A stretch of DNA of 64,000 bases from Acidobacteriota bacterium (GTDB lineage Bacteria; Acidobacteriota; UBA6911): positions 2,432,001 to 2,496,000 of the forward strand of contig OY761556.1 in NCBI GenBank assembly GCA_963664705.1, given 5' to 3'. The notes beneath the pieces were generated by a model. It was not told the origin of the DNA. It saw only the letters and a program-made list of their open reading frames with translations, and ran no database searches. This document shows, one piece after another, positions 1-12,372 of this stretch (positions within the stretch are counted from its first letter, which is position 1; the number at the start of each line of letters is the position of its first letter). Both the position numbers and the translations under genes were made by a program.

Positions 1-73
1 CGCGAGCCGCCCAGGTACCGAAGGCTTCCGCGTATGTGTCCTCTACTTCAACGCCGTTGATCTGGTATGTCAT
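1..73 (-). CDS. ftr: Formylmethanofuran:H4MPT formyltransferase, N-terminus (runs off the left edge)
   Basis: Manual translation from ATG at 73 gives MTYQINGVEVEDTYAEAFGTWAAR, the Ftr/FhcD N-terminal signature (INGVxIEDTFAEAF). It lies directly downstream of fwdA, as in bacterial fhcBADC. Not in the ORF track. Confidence 0.9.
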   Translation of the reverse strand, partial: MTYQINGVEVEDTYAEAFGTWAAR

Positions 74-110
74 AGTCGTAGGTTTGCTTCCATTTACATT
101 CAGCAGCTCT

Positions 111-1733
111 TCACTTCACCGCGACTTCTCGCGGCCGCTGGAGATAATGCTCGGCTTGCACAGGATAGTTCTCGAACTCAATGGTGTAGTATTTGCTGAA
201 AAAATCCCGAATATCGTTTTCCACGGCCACGTCATACGCAGGAGAAACAAAAAGGGTATGACCGTAGGTCTCCTTGCGAATATGGCCATCCTCCACCAGC
301 ACTTCCCCTTCCTTGATCACATATCTCGGGTTTGCAAACATCTGCTCTTTGTCATCGTGCTTGTCATAGATGGTGATATCCGCATCCGCGCCACAACCGA
401 GATGCCCCTTGTGCGTCAGACCTAAGATCTTTGCCGGCGCAGCCCGGGTAATGATTGCAATCTCGTATAGCGAATATTCCCGATCATGATCCGGCAGACT
501 GGTTTTGGCAATTGCCTTCGGGTTGACCGTTTTCAGGACATCTTTCCGGTATTGCCGATCCATCAACAGCCGGATGATCTGCGGATATGCGACGAAGGAC
601 GCCCCGTTGGGATGATCGGTAGACAAGGCTATTCGCCAGGGATCATTGACAAGGAGGAACCATTCCAGGCCAATGGCCCACTGAGTAGCATGAACATAAT
701 TCTTATCTTTGTATTCTATCGGAACGATGCCGCATCCTTCCTCACACTCCACATCCACATTGACCCATTTTCGGCCGCCAATCTGATGCAGAAGGTAAGC
801 GAGGGGGCCGTCGCCGGTCATAGAGGTGGTTTCCCCGAAAAGAACCTGCCCGATATCCACAGTCACATTTGTGTGCGTATTCACGTACTCGGCCAATTCG
901 GGCACGCGTGAAGTGAATAATCCACCCGGTCGACCGCCATAGCTGTGAAACTGAATATGCGCCAGGTGCCCCGGCCTGCCATCCAGCGCCTTCATGGTTT
1001 CCAGGGTGGCCTGCCAGTTTCCGGCTATTCCAAGGTTATTGCAATGGATGTGCACGGGGTGCGGCAGTCGCAACTCCATACTCGCTTCGGCAAGAGACGA
1101 GATAATCTGGCGCGGCGTAACGCCAAAGCCCGATACTTCGTCGTCCAGCGCATGAACGTTTCCTCTGAATTTCCACAATTCCACGCCGCCCGGGTTCACA
1201 ATCTTGATGGCATACCCTTTTGTTGCCTGCAGCAGCCATGCTACATAGTGCTTCACTTTTTCACGTTCACCGGCGGCGATCTGCTTCATGATGAATTCGT
1301 TATTCCCCATCAAAACAAAAAAGCCTTTGTCGATGACAGGAGTATCCAGAAATTCCTCATGCGCATGTCGCGCCGCCATTGGAGGAACGGCGGCATCAAA
1401 AGCAGTGGTATATCCCATTGCCGCATAACGGTAGCCTGTAGTAAATGTCGATGGAATCGATTTCCCCACGCCGGATCTGGTAATCGCGGTTTTGGACACC
1501 GGGTCCCGCCTGTGATCCTCCGGGCGCATTTTGCGGGCTGTATTGACCTTTGGCCCGGCAATGTGGCAATGCATATCCACACCACCTGGCATAATCACCA
1601 TTCCGGCGGCATCAATTGTCTTTCCTTCCTTGACGGTATCGACGATCCGCCCTTCGCTGACGCAGATCTCTCTCACCTCGCCGTTGATGCCGTTGATCGG
1701 ATCGTATACTTCACCATTGATGATCTTCAGCAT
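111..1733 (-). CDS. fwdA: Formylmethanofuran dehydrogenase subunit A (amidohydrolase, FwdA/FhcA)
   Basis: Metal-site motifs DMHCHIAGPKVN, KIVNPGG, HIHCNNLG, HLAHIQF and STDHPNG; 540 aa. Confidence 0.95.
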   Translation of the reverse strand: MLKIINGEVYDPINGINGEVREICVSEGRIVDTVKEGKTIDAAGMVIMPGGVDMHCHIAGPKVNTARKMRPEDHRRDPVSKTAITRSGVGKSIPSTFTTGYRYAAMGYTTAFDAAVPPMAARHAHEEFLDTPVIDKGFFVLMGNNEFIMKQIAAGEREKVKHYVAWLLQATKGYAIKIVNPGGVELWKFRGNVHALDDEVSGFGVTPRQIISSLAEASMELRLPHPVHIHCNNLGIAGNWQATLETMKALDGRPGHLAHIQFHSYGGRPGGLFTSRVPELAEYVNTHTNVTVDIGQVLFGETTSMTGDGPLAYLLHQIGGRKWVNVDVECEEGCGIVPIEYKDKNYVHATQWAIGLEWFLLVNDPWRIALSTDHPNGASFVAYPQIIRLLMDRQYRKDVLKTVNPKAIAKTSLPDHDREYSLYEIAIITRAAPAKILGLTHKGHLGCGADADITIYDKHDDKEQMFANPRYVIKEGEVLVEDGHIRKETYGHTLFVSPAYDVAVENDIRDFFSKYYTIEFENYPVQAEHYLQRPREVAVK

Positions 1734-3016
1734 GCTTTCAGCTCCTTCACTCGCGTCAACAACCGGCTGAGCAATTCCTGATCAGACGGATACGGAGAGG
1801 GCAGGACTTTCCGCAGCAGAATCGGGATGTTATCCATGCGATATACCGTTCCCTCCACATGAATTCCCGCTGTACATGTCGTGAACGCAACATGCGCGAT
1901 TTTCGTGGTTTCACTTTCATGCGTGTCCACCGCGATTGTGGGAATGGAAGCCAGGTGGCGAACCGCTCTTGCGGGCAGCGTTGCCGCCGGATCGGCGGCC
2001 ACCACGATGGCCGCATCGGCCTCCTTTCGACTGCATACATCGACAACCGTATACTCTCCCGGATTGAAACGAGGGTAGCCCAGGCTGAAGTTGACACCGA
2101 AAGGATACCCCGTCTGCCACGCGACGACATTATCCACGCCGGTTACATTGCCGTGGCCTCTCATAGGAATAATGGCAAATTTTGTATGCTGATGAAGCGC
2201 GCGCACCAGCAGAAAAGCGGCGGTAGTATTGAAGTGCTTGCCCCGCGTTTGCGTCAAGCCCTGACCGGCAAAGAGCACGCCAAATTTGCAGTGCATCATC
2301 TTTTCCGCCAGAGCATTCAGCTGATCGATCGTCAGGCCGGTTTCTTCGACGGACGCTTCATCCACCTTTTGGCCCTTCACAAGAGCCTGGAGAGCCCAAA
2401 GCACCTCAAAATCCTTGCCGGGCTTTATCTGAATAAACATATCCACGGCGGCAGCGCTCGCGGTACGGCGTACATCCACAAGCACGACGGTGCGATCTTT
2501 TCGTCCTCGAGGAATAAACATGCCTTTGGGCATTACAGCATAACGCACCATGTGGCGCGGATGCGATTCCCCCGGATTCGATCCCCAATAAATGATCAGG
2601 TCAGCCCGGTTCTTGACCTCACCCAGGGTACAAGTGGGCTCGCCGACGCCCTGCAGCGCCATGCCTGAAGGGCCATGACATACGGAGGTGCAACAATCCA
2701 GGCACCCGCCCAAAAGCTCAGCCAGCGCCACGGCCGAACGCTGTGCTTCACAGGAAGTGCTGCTCAACCCGTAAACGAGCGGATATCGCGATGCAGCCAG
2801 GCAGCGAGCCGCTTCATGAATCCCTTCTTCCAGGCTGACGGCCTGCCCCTGGATCCGGGCCAACGGGAGGTTCGATGGTTGGCCATGGTTCAGAAACCAT
2901 GCTTTCCCAAGAACACAGGCATTCTTAACCTGGGTAACACGATCCTCTTCAACCGTCACCCGGATATCGTCACAATCACACCCGCAAAATGCGCACACTG
3001 CGTGATCCACTTGCAT
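1727..3016 (-). CDS. fwdB: Formylmethanofuran dehydrogenase subunit B (Mo/W-bis-pterin, 4Fe-4S)
   Basis: N-terminal CAFCGCDCDD...NAC cluster motif, SVCHGPS metal-ligand Cys, TLGEVKNRAD, MRGHGNV, GTVYRMD. Confidence 0.95.
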   Translation of the reverse strand: MQVDHAVCAFCGCDCDDIRVTVEEDRVTQVKNACVLGKAWFLNHGQPSNLPLARIQGQAVSLEEGIHEAARCLAASRYPLVYGLSSTSCEAQRSAVALAELLGGCLDCCTSVCHGPSGMALQGVGEPTCTLGEVKNRADLIIYWGSNPGESHPRHMVRYAVMPKGMFIPRGRKDRTVVLVDVRRTASAAAVDMFIQIKPGKDFEVLWALQALVKGQKVDEASVEETGLTIDQLNALAEKMMHCKFGVLFAGQGLTQTRGKHFNTTAAFLLVRALHQHTKFAIIPMRGHGNVTGVDNVVAWQTGYPFGVNFSLGYPRFNPGEYTVVDVCSRKEADAAIVVAADPAATLPARAVRHLASIPTIAVDTHESETTKIAHVAFTTCTAGIHVEGTVYRMDNIPILLRKVLPSPYPSDQELLSRLLTRVKELKAC

Positions 3017-3025
3017 ACGCCAATC

Positions 3026-3409
3026 CTATGACTCCATTATCCCGGACCCGGGCTTCTGTTCCTGATTTTTGGGAACAGCTCTTGTAATCTCGATCTCCAC
3101 GTGTTTTGAATCGGGCATTCCTGACGCGTAGGTTTCACCGCCAACCAATCGGTTGCACGCCGGACCGAATGCAATGAACGCCATCCCCGGGGGTATATCG
3201 GCAGCACGGCATATGACTTCCGCCGATCCATACTCCGTGGTTATCCGAACGGCATCTCCCTCAGCCAATCCTGACCTCTCCAGATCAACAGTATTCACAT
3301 CCAGGATGCGGGTAGCCTCTTGATAATCCAGGTATTCCTTACCGCTCGAAATTCCAGCACCCTGCTTGGTGGACCTGCCGGTAACCAACATCAGCTTAAG
3401 CGTTGCCAT
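3026..3409 (-). CDS. fwdD: Formylmethanofuran dehydrogenase subunit D (molybdopterin dinucleotide-binding)
   Basis: LVTGRSTKQG, AFIAFGPACN and ETYASGMPDSK match FwdD/FmdD; directly upstream of fwdB. Confidence 0.9.
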   Translation of the reverse strand: MATLKLMLVTGRSTKQGAGISSGKEYLDYQEATRILDVNTVDLERSGLAEGDAVRITTEYGSAEVICRAADIPPGMAFIAFGPACNRLVGGETYASGMPDSKHVEIEITRAVPKNQEQKPGSGIMES

Positions 3410-4553
3410 AAATCCGATCTCTCAACAATCGAGCCTGTCGAACCAACTCGCCATACGTTTCCGCCCGCGTTGCCCCTTGCGCAAGCAGGGTACAAACCGG
3501 ACTGCCTTTCCGCAATAACTGATCCGGGGCCGGAATATCCCTGAGCTGGCAGCCCGGCATATTCAAGACTCCCGGGCAGACGGAATCTTTTTCGCAAAAC
3601 AGAATGCTTTTACCGAAAAAACGGTCGGAACTCAATCGCGATTCCAGTCGAAATTCCGGCAATCTTCGATCGACAACCGCCTCCATATGACAACCAAAAA
3701 TCGACAAGCCATATGCCCGTTCGATCAATTCCATAGAAGCGGAATATCGGGGATTCACCTCGATAAGATATACTTCATCACGATTCAGGATAAAATCAAA
3801 ACCATTGATGCCTATTAATCCATATTCACGGACAAGGAATTCGCATAACCGCCTAACCCGGCTAACCACGGGCAGGCCGGGTTCAAGAGCCTCCGGCAAA
3901 GGCAGGATATTTCCGCAATAGCGATAGCCCTGTGTCCCAAAGTGGCAGTCCCCGATCAATTGCTCCGTGATTCCAAGGAGTACGGTTTCCGATCCGTTGG
4001 CAACAAATGTTGCCGAACAGGCTTTTCCTGCAATGAATTCCTGCACCAGCGTTTCTTTTTCAGGCGTCTGTCCATGAAGGAGGAAGATGCCATGCCCCCC
4101 TCCACTCTTAACCGGTTTACTGAGCCACTGACGTCCCTCATCCAATCCGCGACTATTCTGGCGGGAAAGGGTCTCCGGAACGGAAAAGCCACCCGCCCGC
4201 AGGCGAGCAAATAAAACCGGCCAATCACGGATGGCGGCAACGCTGGCAGGAGAGTTGCCAGCCAGCGGATGGGTCGATTCAAACCTTTGAAGTATTTCAG
4301 GATGGTTCTCGAGATTGGAGGTATAGGCAACGGAGTGAAAATCAAGTTGTCGACTCGCCTCAAACAGCGCACGGGCGCTATAGGGGACATTAAAATCCCG
4401 CGGGAGGGAATAGCAACCGGCAAGTGCTCGCAAATCCTCATCCCCAAAAGCATCCAATGCAACGACCGGGTAGCGGCTTTGGACCGCCGACTCGACAAAG
4501 GCGCGCACACTGATGCCAATGACCAAAATTCTGCATTCTTGCGAAGACGTCAT
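3396..4553 (-). CDS. ATP-grasp ligase (COG2232-like) associated with H4MPT/MFR clusters
   Basis: KPVKSGGGHGI, VQEFIAG, GINGFDF and LIEVNPRYSASME. Start placed at 4553 (GGAG-N4-ATG); an alternative start is 4589. Confidence 0.8.
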   Translation of the reverse strand: MTSSQECRILVIGISVRAFVESAVQSRYPVVALDAFGDEDLRALAGCYSLPRDFNVPYSARALFEASRQLDFHSVAYTSNLENHPEILQRFESTHPLAGNSPASVAAIRDWPVLFARLRAGGFSVPETLSRQNSRGLDEGRQWLSKPVKSGGGHGIFLLHGQTPEKETLVQEFIAGKACSATFVANGSETVLLGITEQLIGDCHFGTQGYRYCGNILPLPEALEPGLPVVSRVRRLCEFLVREYGLIGINGFDFILNRDEVYLIEVNPRYSASMELIERAYGLSIFGCHMEAVVDRRLPEFRLESRLSSDRFFGKSILFCEKDSVCPGVLNMPGCQLRDIPAPDQLLRKGSPVCTLLAQGATRAETYGELVRQARLLRDRIYGNA

Positions 4554-4604
4554 TTCACTCCCTGATTTTCTCCGCAGGTCTTCAGACATTAAAGATCATC
4601 CATC

Positions 4605-4793: not shown

Positions 4794-5651
4794 ATGAAGA
4801 AGATACTTATCCAACTCGACAGTGACCGTGTGCCCAGCGTATTTGACGCCGTAACGGCTTACGATGCGGGAGCGGATCGATTGCTTCAACATGGTGGAAT
4901 CGTTCCCACTGAAGTGCGCGACCTCGTTTACGGAGCCATGTTCACGCGCGGACCTTCGGATTTGAAAAACACCGCTGTATTCATCGGGGGAATCAGCGTT
5001 GCAAAAGGAGAGGCCATTCTCAAGGAAACCCTGGCAGCATTCTTCAACCCCTTGAGAGTCTCGGTAATGCTTGACTCCAACGGCTGCAACACAACGGCCA
5101 CGGCCGCGGTGGTCAAAGTCATTTCCGCAGTCCCGGTCCGCGGACAAAAAGTGGTTGTGCTGGCGGGAACCGGACCCGTAGGCCAAAGGGTTGCCGCCCT
5201 CCTCGCCAAAGAGGGAGCCGAAGTCACACTCACATCACGCACTTTTGAGCGAGCCAAAACCGCTTGCGATGCTTTGAAAGAGCGATTTGGGTCGAATGCA
5301 ATTCCGGCAGCCGCGGCCGACTTCGCGGCCACAGCAGCGGTACTTGAAGATGCATGCGCCGCCATCTGCACCGGAGTGGAAGGGGTCATGCTCATTCCGG
5401 AAGATGTCTGGAAAAAGCACCCGACGCTGCAGGTCCTGGCAGACGTCAATGCAGTCCCTCCCCTTGGAATCGAGGGAACGCAATCTCATTGGGACGGTCA
5501 GCAGGTCAATGACAAGCGGATATTCGGTGCCATTGGAATCGGCGGCCTCAAAATGAAAGTCCACAAGAGATGTATTGCACGGCTTTTTGAGCGCAATGAC
5601 CTGGTATTGGACGCAGAGGAGATAATGGTCATCGCCAAGGAATTGGCCTGA
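4794..5651 (+). CDS. mtdA: NAD(P)-dependent methylene-H4MPT dehydrogenase, MtdA/MtdC type
   Basis: KILIQLDSDRVPSVFD, FTRG, MLDSNGCNTTA, AGTGPVG, DVNAVPPLGIEG, GAIGIGGLKMKVH; RBS GGAGGA. Confidence 0.88.
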   Translation: MKKILIQLDSDRVPSVFDAVTAYDAGADRLLQHGGIVPTEVRDLVYGAMFTRGPSDLKNTAVFIGGISVAKGEAILKETLAAFFNPLRVSVMLDSNGCNTTATAAVVKVISAVPVRGQKVVVLAGTGPVGQRVAALLAKEGAEVTLTSRTFERAKTACDALKERFGSNAIPAAAADFAATAAVLEDACAAICTGVEGVMLIPEDVWKKHPTLQVLADVNAVPPLGIEGTQSHWDGQQVNDKRIFGAIGIGGLKMKVHKRCIARLFERNDLVLDAEEIMVIAKELA

Positions 5652-5673: not shown

Positions 5674-6696
5674 TCAAAGGAGGAGGGTGCTGCGGGACAC
5701 GAAGGCTTCGGATTTTTGAATCTTCACCTGAGCGCCCCTGTTTCGGGGCTGTACGCAGAGAACCTGTCCTTCGCCGCAGGTTTGGAGAAAGTCCTTCACC
5801 TGCTGAGTCAGTTTTCGTGCGGACGCTCGCCCCTGGACCAGGCCATAAACAGCGGGTCCCCAGGAACTCTGCCCTGCTCCGACCGCTCCGTTCGCCAGCA
5901 GAAAGTCGATTATCTTTTCGGATAGAGGATTCGAATATCGCCCCCCCTGAACGGCGGCAAAACAATCTCCTATCATCTGCTGTATGATCGTCATCGCCTT
6001 TCCGAAACCATCGATATCTTTTTCAACAAGCGCGGGCAGCATTTTCATCAGAAGCAGATGACTGACTTTTCCCACCAGATCCGGGTTTGCCTCCGGCAAA
6101 TGCGAAAAAGCGCTGCATTCCCTTTCACCGCTGATACCTTGCCCGGTGCCCGGAATACATACAATGAAAAACCAGTCTTTCGGCACCGCACGGTGAAACA
6201 GGATAGGAGGGACATGCTTTCCTGCCTGCCGGGTTGCCCTCGCGGAATCAACGGGCTCGGGGATTCGGTGCCCACCATCCAGAACGAAACCGCCATGTTG
6301 GAAGGTTGCAATCCCTATGCCCGATCTCATGCCCCTTCCGGCATCCAGTGCAATCTCCTCGACGCTCAACGGCAAACCCGCCAGATGAGCCAGTGCCGTC
6401 CCAACCGCAAGCGCTATCTGGGTCCCCGAACCCAGGCCGACGTGCGCGGGGATTCCCGAGATCAGTTGAAGGCGCGCTCCGGCAGGAATCCCATATTTTT
6501 CCACGAAGCGGACGGCGTAAGTTTTTACGCGGTCCGATTCCGCACCCTCGATTATCAGGTCATCCGCCGATTCGGCCTTTAGCCGCAGCTGCGGATGATC
6601 CACCGCCACACCAATGCTGCCATACAGCCGGCCACACTCCCCATTGTGATCCAGCAAACCCAGATGAAGGCGCGCACAGGTTCTGACCTCAATCAT
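5674..6696 (-). CDS. mptG: Beta-ribofuranosylaminobenzene 5'-phosphate synthase (GHMP family)
   Basis: ARLHLGL, PAHVGLGSGTQ, RGMRSGIG, GGFVLDGG, GQSSWGPAVYG. Confidence 0.93.
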   Translation of the reverse strand: MIEVRTCARLHLGLLDHNGECGRLYGSIGVAVDHPQLRLKAESADDLIIEGAESDRVKTYAVRFVEKYGIPAGARLQLISGIPAHVGLGSGTQIALAVGTALAHLAGLPLSVEEIALDAGRGMRSGIGIATFQHGGFVLDGGHRIPEPVDSARATRQAGKHVPPILFHRAVPKDWFFIVCIPGTGQGISGERECSAFSHLPEANPDLVGKVSHLLLMKMLPALVEKDIDGFGKAMTIIQQMIGDCFAAVQGGRYSNPLSEKIIDFLLANGAVGAGQSSWGPAVYGLVQGRASARKLTQQVKDFLQTCGEGQVLCVQPRNRGAQVKIQKSEAFVSRSTLLL

Positions 6697-7244
6697 TACG
6701 CTCCCTTTCGAACAAAGTCTTGTACCATCTGTAAGGCTTGTTTATCGATCGCATCCCCGGTTTTTTCTACGATCTCCCCATACTGCATCAGCTTTTCTTC
6801 CACCCAAAGCGGTTCGTAGAACATCCGTCGCGTGGCCACGATGGTCGCTTCCAGCACGGCATTGCTGCCGCGACGAAACCCAAGGAATTCCTTCTGCCGG
6901 CCCTCGTAGAGCACCCTGCATTGGATATTGGCTCGCACATCGTCCCCTGAATCGGAAATCACCTCCATTTCCCGCCAGGAACAAGTTTCGCTGAACACGA
7001 CACACGGGCTCGCCTTCCCCGGGAAATGAGGAAGCACTGCATCATATAGCGCACTCCGGACATACGCCAGAATATCATCGCTTATGTTTGCTACTCCATA
7101 CCTGGTAGAGAGAAGGTTCCGACAGGTATGGCTGTCACGGAATGGCCTCACGACGACAATGTTCCGGTCCCACACCACTCCCATAGGTGCGAAGTTGGGT
7201 TTCCCGCTCTCATCCAGAGTGGAGAAAATCGTCTCAACAATCAT
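6696..7244 (-). CDS. DUF447 family protein (H4MPT biosynthesis-associated)
   Basis: IVETIFST...PNFAPMG, PFRDSHT, NAVLEATIVATR; its stop overlaps the mptG start. Confidence 0.82.
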   Translation of the reverse strand: MIVETIFSTLDESGKPNFAPMGVVWDRNIVVVRPFRDSHTCRNLLSTRYGVANISDDILAYVRSALYDAVLPHFPGKASPCVVFSETCSWREMEVISDSGDDVRANIQCRVLYEGRQKEFLGFRRGSNAVLEATIVATRRMFYEPLWVEEKLMQYGEIVEKTGDAIDKQALQMVQDFVRKGA

Positions 7245-7317: not shown

Positions 7318-9216
7318 TCACTGAACCACAGACAAAACCCGATAGGAATGCGGCTTGATCTGCAGCGGGAATTGCAGCCTGTTGCCGCCCCCTTGCCCGA
7401 ACCCAAACCAGGCAGGAGCAGAGTTCTTGGGCGGCGTCTGAGGGGAAAACTCCTCGCCACTGACGATATCCCTCAGCCGGGGAAATTTCGGATCGAGCGA
7501 GATTCTGATATCCACGCTATCGGGAAGGAAGGACTCCACGATAAACGTATTATTGTCATACATGAACAGACTGACATCCCCCGGGCTTTCAATACGGACA
7601 AAGGAGTCCCGCAACAATACATTTCGGATTTGAGTTAGAACAGGAGCAGGAAAACTATACAGGTCGCTGAAGTTTTCCGGAACCGTCAAAACATAGAGCT
7701 GCCCTTTTGAGTATCCAGCCTGGATCAGCAGCGGATAGCCCAGATCATTCTGCGTCATGCCGCTGACCAGTTCCCATGCATCGTTAGTGAGATACTGCAG
7801 TTCCGGTATGATGATGTGGAGATCAGGCGAGACCGCGCTTTGCCCTCTGAAACTCTTTATAATCGCCTTTCTATCTGTCACGCGAATTTCCGCAATATCC
7901 TCGATACCCCTCCCCTGGAGAGCCCGCAGAAGGCCGGAGGTGATGACCACAGACTTCCCATCTACCAATTGTTTTTTGATTTTCACAACGACAGAAGGAT
8001 CCGCCGCCGCACTTTCGGTAAGCAGTACCATCGCGGCTTCGCTTGGGAACTCCGGCACGAGGTCGATTGGAATGCCCACCATGCCGAGGTAGGTCTGAAG
8101 GAAATCCTCGCCGGTGGAATGATAGGGGCGATAGCTTTTGAGACCAACCGGTTTCCCCAGCTTGCCCAGGAAGGTATCCGCCTGTTCAAAGGCAACGCCG
8201 GCCGCGCGGGCGATGGTCGTGGGCTTGATGGAGCTTCCATCCTGCTGTTTGATCGGCTCCATCATCCGGTCAAAATCGAAGCTTGTTTGCTGCCCCTGCC
8301 ACGGTCCACGGTCTGCCGGCCGAAGCTGCCGCTGCAGTTGGGCAAAATCGAACAGTGTAACTTCCGGCGTTTTGGCAAAAAGTGTCAGCCAGAGCTGCTC
8401 TGCATAGCGGTCCAGAAACCGGCTTGCCGCGGTATCGACCCAGCCACCGCCATTCCCGCCGGGCTTTAAATTCTCAAAGTACCGAAAAATGGAGTATCCC
8501 AGGTACTCCTGCAGATGCTGATCGCCGGTTCGATCCCGTGTTTCTGTTCCGGTATAGATCCCATCAAATAGCTTTGGCTCGGTTTCCAGGTTGAAACCAA
8601 GTCCCTGAAAGTGCTCATACCAATTGGGATACTTAATGACCAGCTTTACTTTCGGATTCACAGCCTTGGCCGGCTTGACCACAAGCTCACGGGCTGCTTC
8701 ATCCATCAAGGCCAGCCGAAACTGGGTCCAGCTTCGGGTTCCCTTGGCACGAATACAGGCATCGCATTTGCAGTTCGTAAAGAAGAAATCGTCAAAAATG
8801 ATCTCGTCAAAAAGGCCGGCCGTAAATTCCACTACCTGCTTCAAGTGCTTCCGATGTTCCGGGTTGGTATAACAGAATGTCTCAAAACGGTTCATCTCGT
8901 TCACAGTGGCTGTGATTCCACCTGCCACCGTAACCCCGCGATCCTGAAAAAAGCGTTTCAGCTTGAGAATAGTATCCTTCCCCGCCACCTTCATGTCCCG
9001 GTGAGTTTCCAGATATATCTTGTCTACCTTTACCTGCCGCGCAATCTCATTCCAGCGAGGCTCGAGCCACGAGAGGTCGTCCATGCGAAGCACTTCATAG
9101 ACGCGGGCGTAAACAGACACCTTAAAGTTGTTGTAATGATCTGCAGCACCGGCTGCATAGGGAATCAGTGAGCATGCGAAAACAACCAGCAATCGAAGAG
9201 CAAGAGAACGTTTCAT
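7318..9216 (-). CDS. Secreted protein with probable glycoside hydrolase-like TIM barrel
   Basis: Signal peptide (MKRSLALRLLVVFAC...AAGA), DEIIFDDFFFTNCKCDAC putative Zn motif, KYPNWYE. Fold is inferred. Confidence 0.5.
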   Translation of the reverse strand: MKRSLALRLLVVFACSLIPYAAGAADHYNNFKVSVYARVYEVLRMDDLSWLEPRWNEIARQVKVDKIYLETHRDMKVAGKDTILKLKRFFQDRGVTVAGGITATVNEMNRFETFCYTNPEHRKHLKQVVEFTAGLFDEIIFDDFFFTNCKCDACIRAKGTRSWTQFRLALMDEAARELVVKPAKAVNPKVKLVIKYPNWYEHFQGLGFNLETEPKLFDGIYTGTETRDRTGDQHLQEYLGYSIFRYFENLKPGGNGGGWVDTAASRFLDRYAEQLWLTLFAKTPEVTLFDFAQLQRQLRPADRGPWQGQQTSFDFDRMMEPIKQQDGSSIKPTTIARAAGVAFEQADTFLGKLGKPVGLKSYRPYHSTGEDFLQTYLGMVGIPIDLVPEFPSEAAMVLLTESAAADPSVVVKIKKQLVDGKSVVITSGLLRALQGRGIEDIAEIRVTDRKAIIKSFRGQSAVSPDLHIIIPELQYLTNDAWELVSGMTQNDLGYPLLIQAGYSKGQLYVLTVPENFSDLYSFPAPVLTQIRNVLLRDSFVRIESPGDVSLFMYDNNTFIVESFLPDSVDIRISLDPKFPRLRDIVSGEEFSPQTPPKNSAPAWFGFGQGGGNRLQFPLQIKPHSYRVLSVVQ

Positions 9217-9848: not shown

Positions 9849-11198
9849 CTAGTCCGCCTTCGGTGTTCTCCGCGTTTTCAAATCTTTCGACAGATAACCC
9901 CAGCGCAGTTCCTCTTCCTGCGCATATGTCTTTCCCAGTTTTATGGCAATCGATGCTTTCTGGAGTTCCCTGCCCAGGTAAAAGGCATGGGCTCCATCCA
10001 CCTCTCCCAACTCTCTGAAAATGGAGTCAATCTCAATCCCTTTTACAAACAGCTCTCGATTGAAAACATAAATGAACTCGCGATCAGTGAATATACGAAA
10101 GTGGCGGTCCTTGATGTTCGACTGCATTGAACGCAGTTCATCCTCTCGAAAGCTCTCAAAAGACGGATCCTTAACCGTAAGTAATCCATCGTTCAAGTGC
10201 TTGGGCAGAACGCGGTTCATTTGAGCATAGTGCATCAGACGCCGGGCATGATCCAGCTCACACACTGCTCCGCGCGCCCAATGCCCGACTTCCGTCGTCA
10301 GCACATAATCAATACCCAGTTCTGCAACGATACCCGCGATCAGAGCATTCATTCCGGTTGTGTCGGCATCCGTCAATTCGGTGATATTCCCGGCACCCAG
10401 GAGCATTTCGGATTTCGGATATTTCCGCCGGATGGAAGCAAAGCTTTCAATGGATTCGGTAAAACCGAAACAAACCGGCTTCAAAATCGGGTCAATGATG
10501 TATGGAACGCGCCAGGATTCCAGCTTTGCGATATTGGCCGACAGCGATTCCAGCTCGCTCGCTTCGTCCGGAATAACAACCACCTTGCAGTGCAGATGGC
10601 GCGCGACATCAATATTCCTCGAGTTAACGCTCAAAACAAAATCCACGCCGGCGCGATCGGCACTCAGGATATCGTCCGGATTGAAGGAATCGATGCTGAC
10701 AGCATAGCCTGCCTGCTTCAAAGCCCGCACCGTTATCTCGATTTCGGGGAAAGAGCCGCTGACCGGGCATCCCAGGTCGATAATGTCCGCGCCGCTCGCC
10801 CGGTAATAGCTCGCGCGATTTAGAATCTCCTCCAGGGTCATGCGATGCGCATCCACAATTTCAGCCAGGATCTTCGCATGATATTCGCCGTAGCCCTCCA
10901 GTCTTTGGGAGGCGCCAAAATAGCCTGGGATATCCTTCAGGCTTTTGGGGCCCCGGATGACCTCCGCACCGGTCTTCTGCTCAACCAGAGCCAGATCCCC
11001 CTCGCAGGAACCGGGAATCATGATCCTGTCGCATCCGTTGCTTCCGCTTATATGTTTTGAGATGAAACGGGTATCCATGAGCGCGGCCACCGAAATCGGC
11101 ATGACAGACACATCGTATTCAAGGGCTTGTATCCCCTGCAAACAGTCGCGCAAAGACTGTTCTGCCAGTTTTCCCGTTATAAACAGGTACCGAGGCAT
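9849..11198 (-). CDS. Dihydropteroate synthase-like protein (Orf20/MptH type)
   Basis: LFITGKLAE N-domain, ILAEIVDA, GADIIDLG, GNITELTDADTTG and HAFYLGRELQKA...YAQEEELRWG C-domain. Confidence 0.88.
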   Translation of the reverse strand: MPRYLFITGKLAEQSLRDCLQGIQALEYDVSVMPISVAALMDTRFISKHISGSNGCDRIMIPGSCEGDLALVEQKTGAEVIRGPKSLKDIPGYFGASQRLEGYGEYHAKILAEIVDAHRMTLEEILNRASYYRASGADIIDLGCPVSGSFPEIEITVRALKQAGYAVSIDSFNPDDILSADRAGVDFVLSVNSRNIDVARHLHCKVVVIPDEASELESLSANIAKLESWRVPYIIDPILKPVCFGFTESIESFASIRRKYPKSEMLLGAGNITELTDADTTGMNALIAGIVAELGIDYVLTTEVGHWARGAVCELDHARRLMHYAQMNRVLPKHLNDGLLTVKDPSFESFREDELRSMQSNIKDRHFRIFTDREFIYVFNRELFVKGIEIDSIFRELGEVDGAHAFYLGRELQKASIAIKLGKTYAQEEELRWGYLSKDLKTRRTPKAD

Positions 11199-11331: not shown

Positions 11332-12372
11332 CTAGCCTGGCCGTGTTTTGATCATTGTATCCAGTGGGGAGTTACCCAGCAACAATCGGTAATGAATCCG
11401 GCCTTTGCTGTTCTCGAGCCTTTCGACGGTGCCGGTGGCGACTACAGCGTCGCCAATACAGGCCTGTTCGCAGAACCTGCCGCGAAATGAGACGATTTCA
11501 TCAATAGGGATTTCCGGGCCGTCCAGAATCTTGACGCCGGACACCCCATATCTGCAGGGAGTAAATATTGCATCCTGATCGTCAACTATACTGGCTTCAA
11601 TGGTAGCGCGCCCCATGGCCGAATATCGTATTTCTCCATAGTTTTCCTGGATCTCTTGAGGATCTTTGAGAAAACGGATGAAATAGGGGCGCGCACGAAA
11701 GCTGCCTTGACAGATCTTGTTTCTCTCGGATGCCACAAAGTCATCAAACGCCATCTGCGTATCCGGAGTGCGCTGCTCGTATAGCTCCGCAACACCAGCC
11801 GCGTCGAGCCGATTCCATTCCGGATCAGATCCCGACTGCAAAATGGATTGCAGAGCCTGATACACTTTTTGGCTGTTTTGCAGCCCAAAAACGGAGATAT
11901 CCAGGTCAGAGGAATCCCTATGCATGTCGATAAGAATCGATCCCGAAATTCCAATCGCGGAGGACGGAACACCGGATCTTGTCTGAAGTGACTTAATGAA
12001 ATCGGCAGCATCGGTCAAAACCGGATGAGATTGTTGCTCAGAGCATAATTCGACGGCGCGTGTGCGCGGATCATACACTCGCCCAATCAGGGTTCGGGGC
12101 ACGCTCTGCAGAGTGGTCTGAAAAACCGGATCGTGTTTGAGGTAATGCGGAAATTGCGACCGAAGCAGCTGTTCCTGTTCCGGGAAATGATAGAGCCGCC
12201 GATAAGCCATCCCGGATCTTACCCTGCTTCCATGATCCGCGTCCGGCACATAGCGAACGACGCCAATCACACGATCCGGAGGATGTACCAATCCTTTTAC
12301 GGCAAAGAAGAGACCTTCCCGCGTTTCCAGATAAAAGCTCTCAATAATGCCAAGTGCAGCAAGAGCATCCAC
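11332..12372 (-). CDS. Archaeal-type predicted nucleotidyltransferase (COG1665-like)
   Basis: Pol-beta motif GISGS...SDLDISVFG; N-terminal ETREGLFFAVKGLVHPPDRVIGVVRYVP; C-terminal FTPCRY and SFRGRFCEQA. Family assigned from recall. Confidence 0.7.
   Translation of the reverse strand: MDALAALGIIESFYLETREGLFFAVKGLVHPPDRVIGVVRYVPDADHGSRVRSGMAYRRLYHFPEQEQLLRSQFPHYLKHDPVFQTTLQSVPRTLIGRVYDPRTRAVELCSEQQSHPVLTDAADFIKSLQTRSGVPSSAIGISGSILIDMHRDSSDLDISVFGLQNSQKVYQALQSILQSGSDPEWNRLDAAGVAELYEQRTPDTQMAFDDFVASERNKICQGSFRARPYFIRFLKDPQEIQENYGEIRYSAMGRATIEASIVDDQDAIFTPCRYGVSGVKILDGPEIPIDEIVSFRGRFCEQACIGDAVVATGTVERLENSKGRIHYRLLLGNSPLDTMIKTRPG

Follow-up and report, generated by a model that had tools for sequence, protein, structure and literature searches.

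The left end of the window (the whole 64,000-nucleotide stretch analysed here) carries fwd genes in one operon with ftr, which raises the question of whether they encode a redox-active formylmethanofuran dehydrogenase or an Fhc-like complex that releases formate. Judging from sequence, FwdABCD and Ftr likely form one complex, whose predicted reaction turns the formyl group of formyl-H4MPT into CO2. We show the genes, their residues and their co-occurrence, model the docking of Ftr on FwdC, and infer the cofactor loading, activity, direction and electron acceptor of the complex.

Minus-strand ORFs and family profile matches agreed with the order fwdD-fwdB-fwdA-ftr given by the first-pass annotation, as summarized in Table 1. 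The presence of FwdD was also borne out, with PF01568 above its cut-off and a match to 5t5i_D (E 4e-16); NF042908 gave 75 bits, below its 175 cut-off. Reading the left flank for fwdC and mch, as had been proposed, we found both beyond ftr. The genes to the left of the window, after ftr, are fwdC, mch, orf5/myfB, orf7, fae, orf17, an mfnD-like gene, orf9, orf21, mfnB, and an AOR gene. In ftr and this block (locus L001), TIGR03119, TIGR03122, and TIGR03120 scored 428, 264, and 409 bits, respectively, and Fae was recognized by PF08714. The AOR gene was rejected as a part of the system, as it recurs in no more than 3 of the 46 bacterial loci. Judging from gene order, the ATP-grasp ligase that overlaps the fwdD start is likely OrfY/MyfA. 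A promoter and terminator scan gave a signal no better than chance.

Table 1. Features of the operon and its right flank (window coordinates)
Feature	Position	Strand	Evidence or remark
ftr/fhcD, 5' end (protein 299 aa)	1..73	-	start at 73
fwdA, binuclear amidohydrolase, 540 aa	111..1733	-	TIGR03121, 779 bits, above cut-off
fwdB, predicted Mo/W-bis-PGD formate-oxidising subunit, 429 aa	1727..3016	-	TIGR03129, 521 bits, above cut-off
FwdB Arg286 (RGHGN motif), counterpart of catalytic Arg288	2159..2161	-	alignment to 5t5i_B
FwdB Cys113 (metal ligand, codon TGT) and His114	2675..2680	-	alignment to Cys118/His119 of 5t5i_B
FwdB [4Fe-4S] ligands Cys8, Cys11, Cys15, Cys34	2915..2995	-	sequence
fwdD, pterin-capping domain IV subunit, 127 aa	3026..3409	-	PF01568 (Molydop_binding), 46.7 bits
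ATP-grasp ligase	3396..4589	-	PF02655; kept directly upstream of fwdD
mtd, NAD(P)-dependent methylene-H4MPT dehydrogenase	4794..5651	+	PF09176 Mpt_N, 105 bits; 33/46 bacterial loci
mptG, beta-RFAP synthase (H4MPT biosynthesis)	5674..6696	-	TIGR00144, 228 bits
DUF447 protein of H4MPT clusters	6696..7244	-	PF04289/PF20766; 17/46 bacterial loci
orf20-like dihydropteroate-synthase-like protein	9849..11198	-	TIGR00284, 218 bits, below cut-off; 17/46 bacterial loci

FwdB contains the motifs claimed for it, namely C8-x2-C11-x3-C15...C34, C113-H114-G115, and R286-G-H-G-N. When aligned with archaeal FwdB and with FhcB, as suggested earlier, it scored 413 bits against 8rja_B, 405 bits against 5t5i_B, and 58 bits against 6s6y_B (FhcB). 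Cys113, His114, and Arg286 line up with Cys118, His119, and Arg288 of Methanothermobacter wolfeii FwdB (5t5i_B; residue numbering from PMC6926001). The FwdB model has a TM score of 0.80-0.81 to FwdB and 0.57-0.58 to FhcB, with residues 111-127 and 289-322, in the pocket region, being unreliable. FwdA reached 481-551 bits against archaeal FwdA and 352 against FhcA, and His55, His57, His230, His259, Lys177, and Asp373 of its binuclear metal site are present in 87/87 rows.

We compared these positions across bacterial loci. The four Fe-S cysteines of FwdB are kept in all 47 bacterial rows with an N-terminus. Of 50 rows, 44 have Cys and 6 have UGA at the metal-ligand position, and 49 retain Arg286. 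FwdD residues R12, Q16, G23, F78, G82, T93, G97, and P99 are invariant (51/51 bacterial rows). The Fe-S motif alone is not diagnostic, because 6 of 7 proteobacterial FhcB controls retain all four cysteines, yet lack the Cys/His/Arg triad and FwdD. The Fe-S loss in the earlier description of methylotroph FhcB, known from Methylorubrum extorquens, is not general for FhcB. Across loci, the metal ligand and FwdD share the same fate: fwdD lies in the same locus in 63 of 66 rows with ligand-intact bacterial FwdB (two misses are contig ends) and in none of the 11 rows with ligand-less FwdB/FhcB. Decay of the module does occur, since locus L040 has Gln in place of His114 and no fwdD. In three congeners (G120, G123, and G124), fwdB is split into two pieces.

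We wondered whether the complex may nevertheless be an Fhc in function, with a relic metal site, formyl-MFR being hydrolysed and formate passed to separate formate dehydrogenases. The search for Mo/W cofactor genes proposed earlier returned moaA, moaC, 4 moeA, and modA above cut-off, and mobA-like and tupA-like genes with matches below cut-off only. This formate-releasing reading is favoured by the failure to find the FdhD sulfurtransferase in the genome or FwdF/FwdG in the left flank and cluster, and by several other Mo/W enzymes in the genome, including a Sec-type FdhF. It also agrees with a published reading of the genus UBA6911, in which the H4MPT pathway ends at formate and its value is unclear (10.1101/2021.04.09.439258). 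The local absence of FwdF/G does not discriminate, because only 3 of 35 archaeal loci (and 2 of 46 bacterial loci) gave an ORF with the CxxCxxCxxxC motif. Set against this reading are the conservation of the ligand triad and FwdD motifs across phyla, the lack of FwdD beside ligand-less FhcB (11/11 rows), and the swapping in of a Sec module by congeners, which requires recoding that a mere scaffold would not need. We therefore regard it as improbable.

The Sec modules were found in five genomes of the same genus, in which fwdD-fwdB is missing from the cluster and a separate fwdD-fwdB-fwdC operon is present instead, with UGA (selenocysteine) exactly at the metal ligand. All five genomes with such an operon contain selA, and downstream of the UGA there is a 7-bp hairpin in 86/86 Sec-type rows (63 distinct), as against 0/37 Cys-type rows. 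These putative replacement modules are the strongest sign that the enzyme may be redox active.

As for the place of Ftr, FwdC carries an FhcC-type helix-loop-helix tail (helices 223-234 and 241-244) that aligns to the tail of 6s6y_C, with an rmsd of 1.9 A for FwdC to 6s6y_C versus 3.1 A to 5t5i_C. The FwdC-Ftr complex model scored 0.80 versus 0.00 for the best of 3 controls, passing a mark that was attained by 116 of 157 solved pairs and by 2 of 215 mismatched ones, although this score may mirror resemblance to the solved 6s6y. In the model, the interface is at FwdC 215-231, runs share at least 96% of contacts, and the partner pLDDT is at least 90. The modelling thus supports docking of Ftr on the FwdC tail. 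Alternatively, a redox-active FwdABCD could work with a free-standing Ftr and a diffusible methanofuran as in archaea, ftr being merely co-transcribed. In many Sec-type loci ftr is divergent or was not seen within the stretch examined, congener G127 has ftr far from its separate fwdDBAC, and the docking model may simply reproduce 6s6y, all in line with a free Ftr. But the FhcC-type tail is found in 40/40 bacterial and 0/23 archaeal FwdC, also where fwdC is encoded away from ftr, and the methylofuran biosynthesis genes flanking the operon, orf5/myfB and the orfY-like ligase, point to a long polyglutamate tail (PMC8141765). Free-standing Ftr thus seems rather unlikely to us, and we favour docked Ftr.

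In the complex with docked Ftr, Fae would put formaldehyde on H4MPT, and Mtd and Mch would yield formyl-H4MPT. The Ftr dimer may then hand the formyl group over to methanofuran, which would be polyglutamylated and probably tethered. After hydrolysis of the formyl-methanofuran by FwdA, formate would reach the Mo/W-bis-PGD site of FwdB/D by an internal tunnel and become CO2 there. CO2 formation would be the last step of formaldehyde oxidation, and formate would not be released. Electrons are predicted to leave FwdB through its only [4Fe-4S] cluster; the carrier that takes them up would be encoded at another locus and is probably a soluble ferredoxin. The redox potential of formyl-MFR is about -0.5 V; this low potential would be preserved, unlike in Fhc, and would suit an anaerobe.

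The first-pass annotation had allowed either C1 oxidation or CO2 reduction. Oxidation, the likelier of the two with Fae and Mtd present, is the probable direction because Fae is there and neither ACS nor Mer was found in this genome. In the opposite direction, the same redox-active complex would convert CO2 to formyl-MFR and methylene-H4MPT, serving as an electron sink or C1 supply, which we consider unlikely. Archaeal Fwd is reversible (PMC6926001), the genome is rich in hydrogenase-like and HdrA-like proteins, and the fwdDBAC of G127 adjoins an NADH-dependent group A6 [FeFe] hydrogenase, the only genome with a hydrogenase beside the module. However, without Mer and ACS, methylene-H4MPT would have no known sink, and Fae goes along with the cluster. 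Among the 30 genus genomes, which are related and hence not independent observations, FwdA, FwdB, FwdC, and Ftr co-occur in the same 23; Fae is found in 21/23 of these carriers and 0/7 non-carriers, and ACS in only 5/23 carriers and 2/7 non-carriers. A Wood-Ljungdahl link was rejected on these ACS counts. As formaldehyde sources, PQQ methanol dehydrogenase, MtaB, and MttB were not found in this genome; across the genus, MtaB was rejected at 0/30 genomes, as was MttB, present in 11/30 with no tie to carriers.

We also looked for the electron partner. No conserved ferredoxin or flavoprotein ORF was seen in 46 bacterial loci, nor in those metagenome loci that exceed 4 kb (50 of 80), and a partner from the neighbourhood was rejected. 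Genome-wide, no ORF has more than 4 CxxCxxCxxxC motifs, and 8 small ferredoxins matched no Fwd-named NCBIfam model, a scan that a distant FwdG could escape.

Compared with FwdABCDFG of M. wolfeii (5T5I; core 8RJA), the operon shares the FwdA metal ligands, the FwdB Fe-S motif and triad, a separate FwdD, and the fold. It differs in that no FwdF/G was found, ftr lies within the operon, FwdC ends in the helix-loop-helix tail rather than a beta-hairpin, and the setting is Fae/Mtd formaldehyde oxidation. With FhcABCD of M. extorquens (6S6Y; PMC6926001), it shares the order B-A-ftr-C, the tail predicted to bind the Ftr dimer, the orf5, orfY-like, and orf17 methylofuran genes, and Fae-Mtd-Mch upstream; unlike here, FhcB lacks Cys118/His119/Arg288 and there is no FwdD. 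The Hakuba Actinobacteria SAG S47 (2020) has the identical order fwdDBA-ftr-fwdC, the Fe-S domain, Cys118, and no fwdFG, and its authors suggested possible activity (PMC7325909). This SAG was reported to lack methanopterin biosynthesis genes, whereas H4MPT and MFR genes flank the operon here. For planctomycete P2 (2016), PMC4807772 gives a Sec-encoded fmdB in fmdD-fmdB-fmdA-fmdC, that is, an intact-ligand FwdB beside fwdD with UGA at the ligand, as in the replacement operons of the genus. In the window, by contrast, fwdB is of the Cys form and shares its operon with ftr, and the P2 paper gives no account of a Sec module taking the place of a deleted Cys module. According to these two sources (PMC7325909 and PMC4807772), the operon type is already known from genomes; the gene arrangement is not new, and the novelty is modest.

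What H4MPT/MFR genes do in non-methylotrophic bacteria has been called enigmatic (PMC5020050). If the terminal complex is redox active, such clusters would oxidise C1 units fully to CO2, giving low-potential electrons that anaerobes could gain from formaldehyde, and their annotation as 'Fhc' would be wrong for that reason. There is perhaps an even chance that, outside Proteobacteria, many bacterial H4MPT clusters code for a formyl-H4MPT:acceptor oxidoreductase in a single complex, with redox-active Fwd and docked Ftr, tethered methylofuran, swappable Cys/Sec B/D modules, and an undiscovered acceptor replacing FwdF/G. This would be a surviving intermediate on the way from archaeal Fwd to Fhc and would show Ftr docking to have preceded metal-site loss, and the FhcC tail on redox-intact enzymes would reorder the three-step Fwd-to-Fhc path given in PMC6926001. 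Studies of CO2/formyl interconversion would also gain a small scaffold in an Fwd core of four subunits that has Ftr built in and lacks a polyferredoxin.

Of the proposed 'hybrid or ancestral' type, hybrid fits the triad, FwdD, tail, and cofactor genes; 'ancestral' is plausible, and the quick FwdA trees do not show it. These SH-aLRT trees (midpoint-rooted; 86/87 rows and 47 chosen rows), which carry long-branch warnings and have archaeal rows mostly from ANME-1, resolved neither the transfer direction nor the number of FhcB origins. They set proteobacterial Fhc apart and placed this genome (G000) among Acidobacteriota rows, in agreement with the acidobacterial host first suggested from the sequence.

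The gene order fwdD-fwdB-fwdA-ftr proposed by the first-pass annotation was borne out on the minus strand, between positions 73 and 3409, where neighbouring genes are separated or overlapped by at most 37 bases. The flank beyond ftr, which the annotation proposed to read for fwdC and mch, contains both, together with orf5, orf7, fae, orf17, an mfnD-like ligase gene, orf9, orf21 and mfnB, and to the right of fwdD are an ATP-grasp ligase gene, mtd, mptG, DUF447 and orf20. The cluster is a near-complete H4MPT/methanofuran gene set, and a genome-wide look found no second copies of C1 enzymes. We also observed two proteins without a family assignment. One, with an apparent signal peptide, is an insertion that separates DUF447 from a YfiT-family gene; the other lacks Pfam and NCBIfam matches, is conserved beside 7 of 46 clusters, and has mostly archaeal Atlas look-alikes, some with NTP_transf_2 (20-49% of members). 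At the cluster edge, left of the window, is an aldehyde:ferredoxin oxidoreductase gene (L001:3871-6042, minus strand), a family with more than 20 paralogues in the genome.

Features in the window (all on the minus strand)
Feature	Position	Remark
ftr	73	start only
fwdA	111-1733	
fwdB	1727-3016	
fwdD	3026-3409	
632-aa protein	7318-9216	no family match
346-aa protein	11332-12372	no Pfam or NCBIfam match

Comparison of FwdB with five archaeal FwdB/FmdB structures gave 348-413 bits, whereas FhcB of Methylorubrum extorquens gave 58 bits. In the alignment, Cys113, His114 and Arg286 of FwdB pair with Cys118, His119 and Arg288, which are described as gone from FhcB in PMC6926001. FwdD matches 5t5i_D, and FwdA keeps six of six metal ligands. 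Judging from these alignments, the FwdB metal site looks intact, and the earlier claim of an intact Cys/His ligand pair, the Arg and FwdD stands. The FwdB structure model gave TM scores of 0.80-0.81 to FwdB and 0.57-0.58 to FhcB, with pLDDT below 50 at residues 111-127 and 289-322, pocket included.

As controls, we used seven proteobacterial fhc operons from plasmids, leaving out an eighth locus without fhcB. The Cys/His/Arg triad and fwdD were each found in 0/7, whereas all four Fe-S cysteines were retained in 6/7, so that the cysteine motif is not diagnostic of Fwd versus Fhc. The annotation was right that Fhc has no FwdD, but loss of the Fe-S motif, as described for M. extorquens, does not hold for FhcB in general. 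Across 77 bacterial rows, the locus also encoded FwdD in 63 of the 66 with a ligand-intact FwdB and in 0 of the 11 with a ligand-less one. Two observations count against the reading of an active enzyme: fwdB is split into two pieces in three congeners, and one related locus (FwdB at L040:10001-11287), with His114 replaced by Gln and fwdD and mch absent from its 21 kb, looks like a decaying cluster. Separately, Acidobacteriota family f51 (L203-L206, L207-L208) carries a Sec-type intact FwdB plus degenerate FhcB-like copies without fwdD, possibly by separate loss or transfer.

The FwdC alignment to FhcC (6s6y_C) extends to residue 265, while against archaeal FwdC/FmdC structures it ends at 202-222 in four of five and reaches 255 in 9sfi_R. 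A 21-residue insert is present in 40/40 bacterial and 0/23 archaeal rows, the latter mostly ANME-1, and forms helices 223-234 and 241-244 in the structure model. PMC6926001 names this feature in the FhcC tail as the docking site of FhcD. FwdC modelled with the Ftr dimer scored 0.80 (best control, 0.00); FwdC 215-231 lies at the interface, the runs agree on at least 96% of contacts, and the partner has a pLDDT of at least 90. Of the solved pairs, 116/157 reach the mark applied, as do 2/215 mismatched pairs; since 6s6y is a similar complex, passing may reflect likeness alone. The ftr gene is present in 37/46 bacterial and 0/35 archaeal loci. Taken together, the predicted complex is probably not an Fhc: its metal site resembles that of archaeal Fwd, and its Ftr interface that of Fhc. 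The hybrid Fwd-Ftr reading was right in substance, given the ligand triad, FwdD and the FhcC-type tail.

The genome search for Mo/W cofactor genes, proposed in the annotation, recovered moaA, moaC, four moeA and modA, with mobA-like and tupA-like genes below cut-off; selA, selB and 12 molybdopterin-oxidoreductase matches are also present. FdhD was not found in the genome; some tungsten enzymes mature without it. Fhs is present, and ACS, Mer, PQQ methanol dehydrogenase, MtaB and MttB were not found in the genome. Since Fae and Mtd are present and methylene-H4MPT has no known sink here, the likelier of the two directions first considered, C1 oxidation and CO2 reduction, is the oxidative one, from formaldehyde to CO2. 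In the UBA6911 preprint (10.1101/2021.04.09.439258), the pathway of the genus is read as formaldehyde to formate. Elsewhere in the genome, a UGA-containing FdhF-like gene lies beside a formate-hydrogenlyase-like membrane hydrogenase operon (L111:3993-16577), and hgcA-hgcB mercury methylation genes are both above the NCBIfam cut-off (L103:3816-5165).

Five congeneric genomes (G112, G119, G126, G128, G131; loci L083-L088, L095-L099) have the cluster without fwdD and fwdB, three of them also without fwdC there. The ATP-grasp gene abuts fwdA in four; the G112 contig stops just upstream. All five have selA. Each also encodes fwdD-fwdB-fwdC in an operon apart from the cluster, where UGA occupies the ligand codon of fwdB (S-L-U-H-G); in G119 this operon occurs at least twice, alongside a third fwdC match. 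A sixth congener, G127, instead has a divergent Cys-type fwdDBAC (~50% identity, L089:6802-15452). The module placed back to back with it is an NADH-dependent group A6 [FeFe] hydrogenase, which is an electron-partner candidate for that one genome.

Searching metagenomes with the Sec form yielded 526 related stretches; 80 were retained (L123-L202), each with UGA as the ligand codon. In 86/86 Sec rows (63 distinct) but 0/37 Cys-type genes, a 7-bp hairpin (loop AGUU) lies 25 bases 3' of the UGA; the Leu codon within the hairpin is UUG in 86/86, against 12% elsewhere in those genes. These rows are related to one another, and compensatory change is scarce. By sequence, the metagenome Sec-type FwdB is a large bacterial clade with a near-invariant SECIS-like hairpin. 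One neighbour among these loci has a prepilin-type N-terminus, a feature typical of Planctomycetes. Seventeen of 401 Acidobacteriota genomes match: three Cys-type, six TGA, four degenerate and four weak matches in much longer proteins. A catalytic role seems probable, because a scaffold would need neither recoded selenium nor a matched FwdD.

The operon type is already known from genomes, and the window holds a further predicted case. PMC7325909 describes fwdDBA-ftr-fwdC in Actinobacteria with the Fe-S domain and Cys118, activity being suggested by its authors. PMC4807772 describes a planctomycete fmdDBAC operon with Sec-type fmdB, an operon that it also records for Methylomirabilis. In PMC5020050, fwdD is noted from Synergistetes, Firmicutes and NC10, and PMC10100899 counts 149 bacterial FwdB. 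Our literature search, covering parts of the sources, turned up neither biochemical work on such a bacterial enzyme nor any description of a Sec module taking the place of a deleted Cys module. The present analysis adds this replacement and a proposed order in which the FhcC-type tail preceded metal-site loss.

Bacteria contribute 45 of the 80 best genome loci (Acidobacteriota, Chloroflexota, Desulfatiglans, Thermoleophilia and one Planctomycetota), and most of these retain the block. Within the window's class, 23/137 genomes match, every one in the window's genus; FwdA, Ftr and FwdC are confined to the same 23 of its 30 genomes. Fae occurs in 21/23 carriers and 0/7 others, and Mch tracks less closely (21/23 carriers plus two non-carriers). 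In the FwdA tree, the window's genome groups among Acidobacteriota rows, one titled UBA6911, which makes a host of that family likely, in line with the acidobacterium first suggested. Two loci (L026, L030) have two fwdA per cluster, one ahead of ftr-fwdC-mch and the other in fwdD-fwdB-fwdA, and the copies fall in different clades. DUF2193 occurs in 13/46 bacterial loci (e.g., L042:3178-4731 and L019:4150-6150), with Chloroflexota and Thermoleophilia H4MPT clusters. A glutaredoxin-like gene often accompanies it, an aquaporin-family gene occasionally, and this group is a possible C1 entry module.
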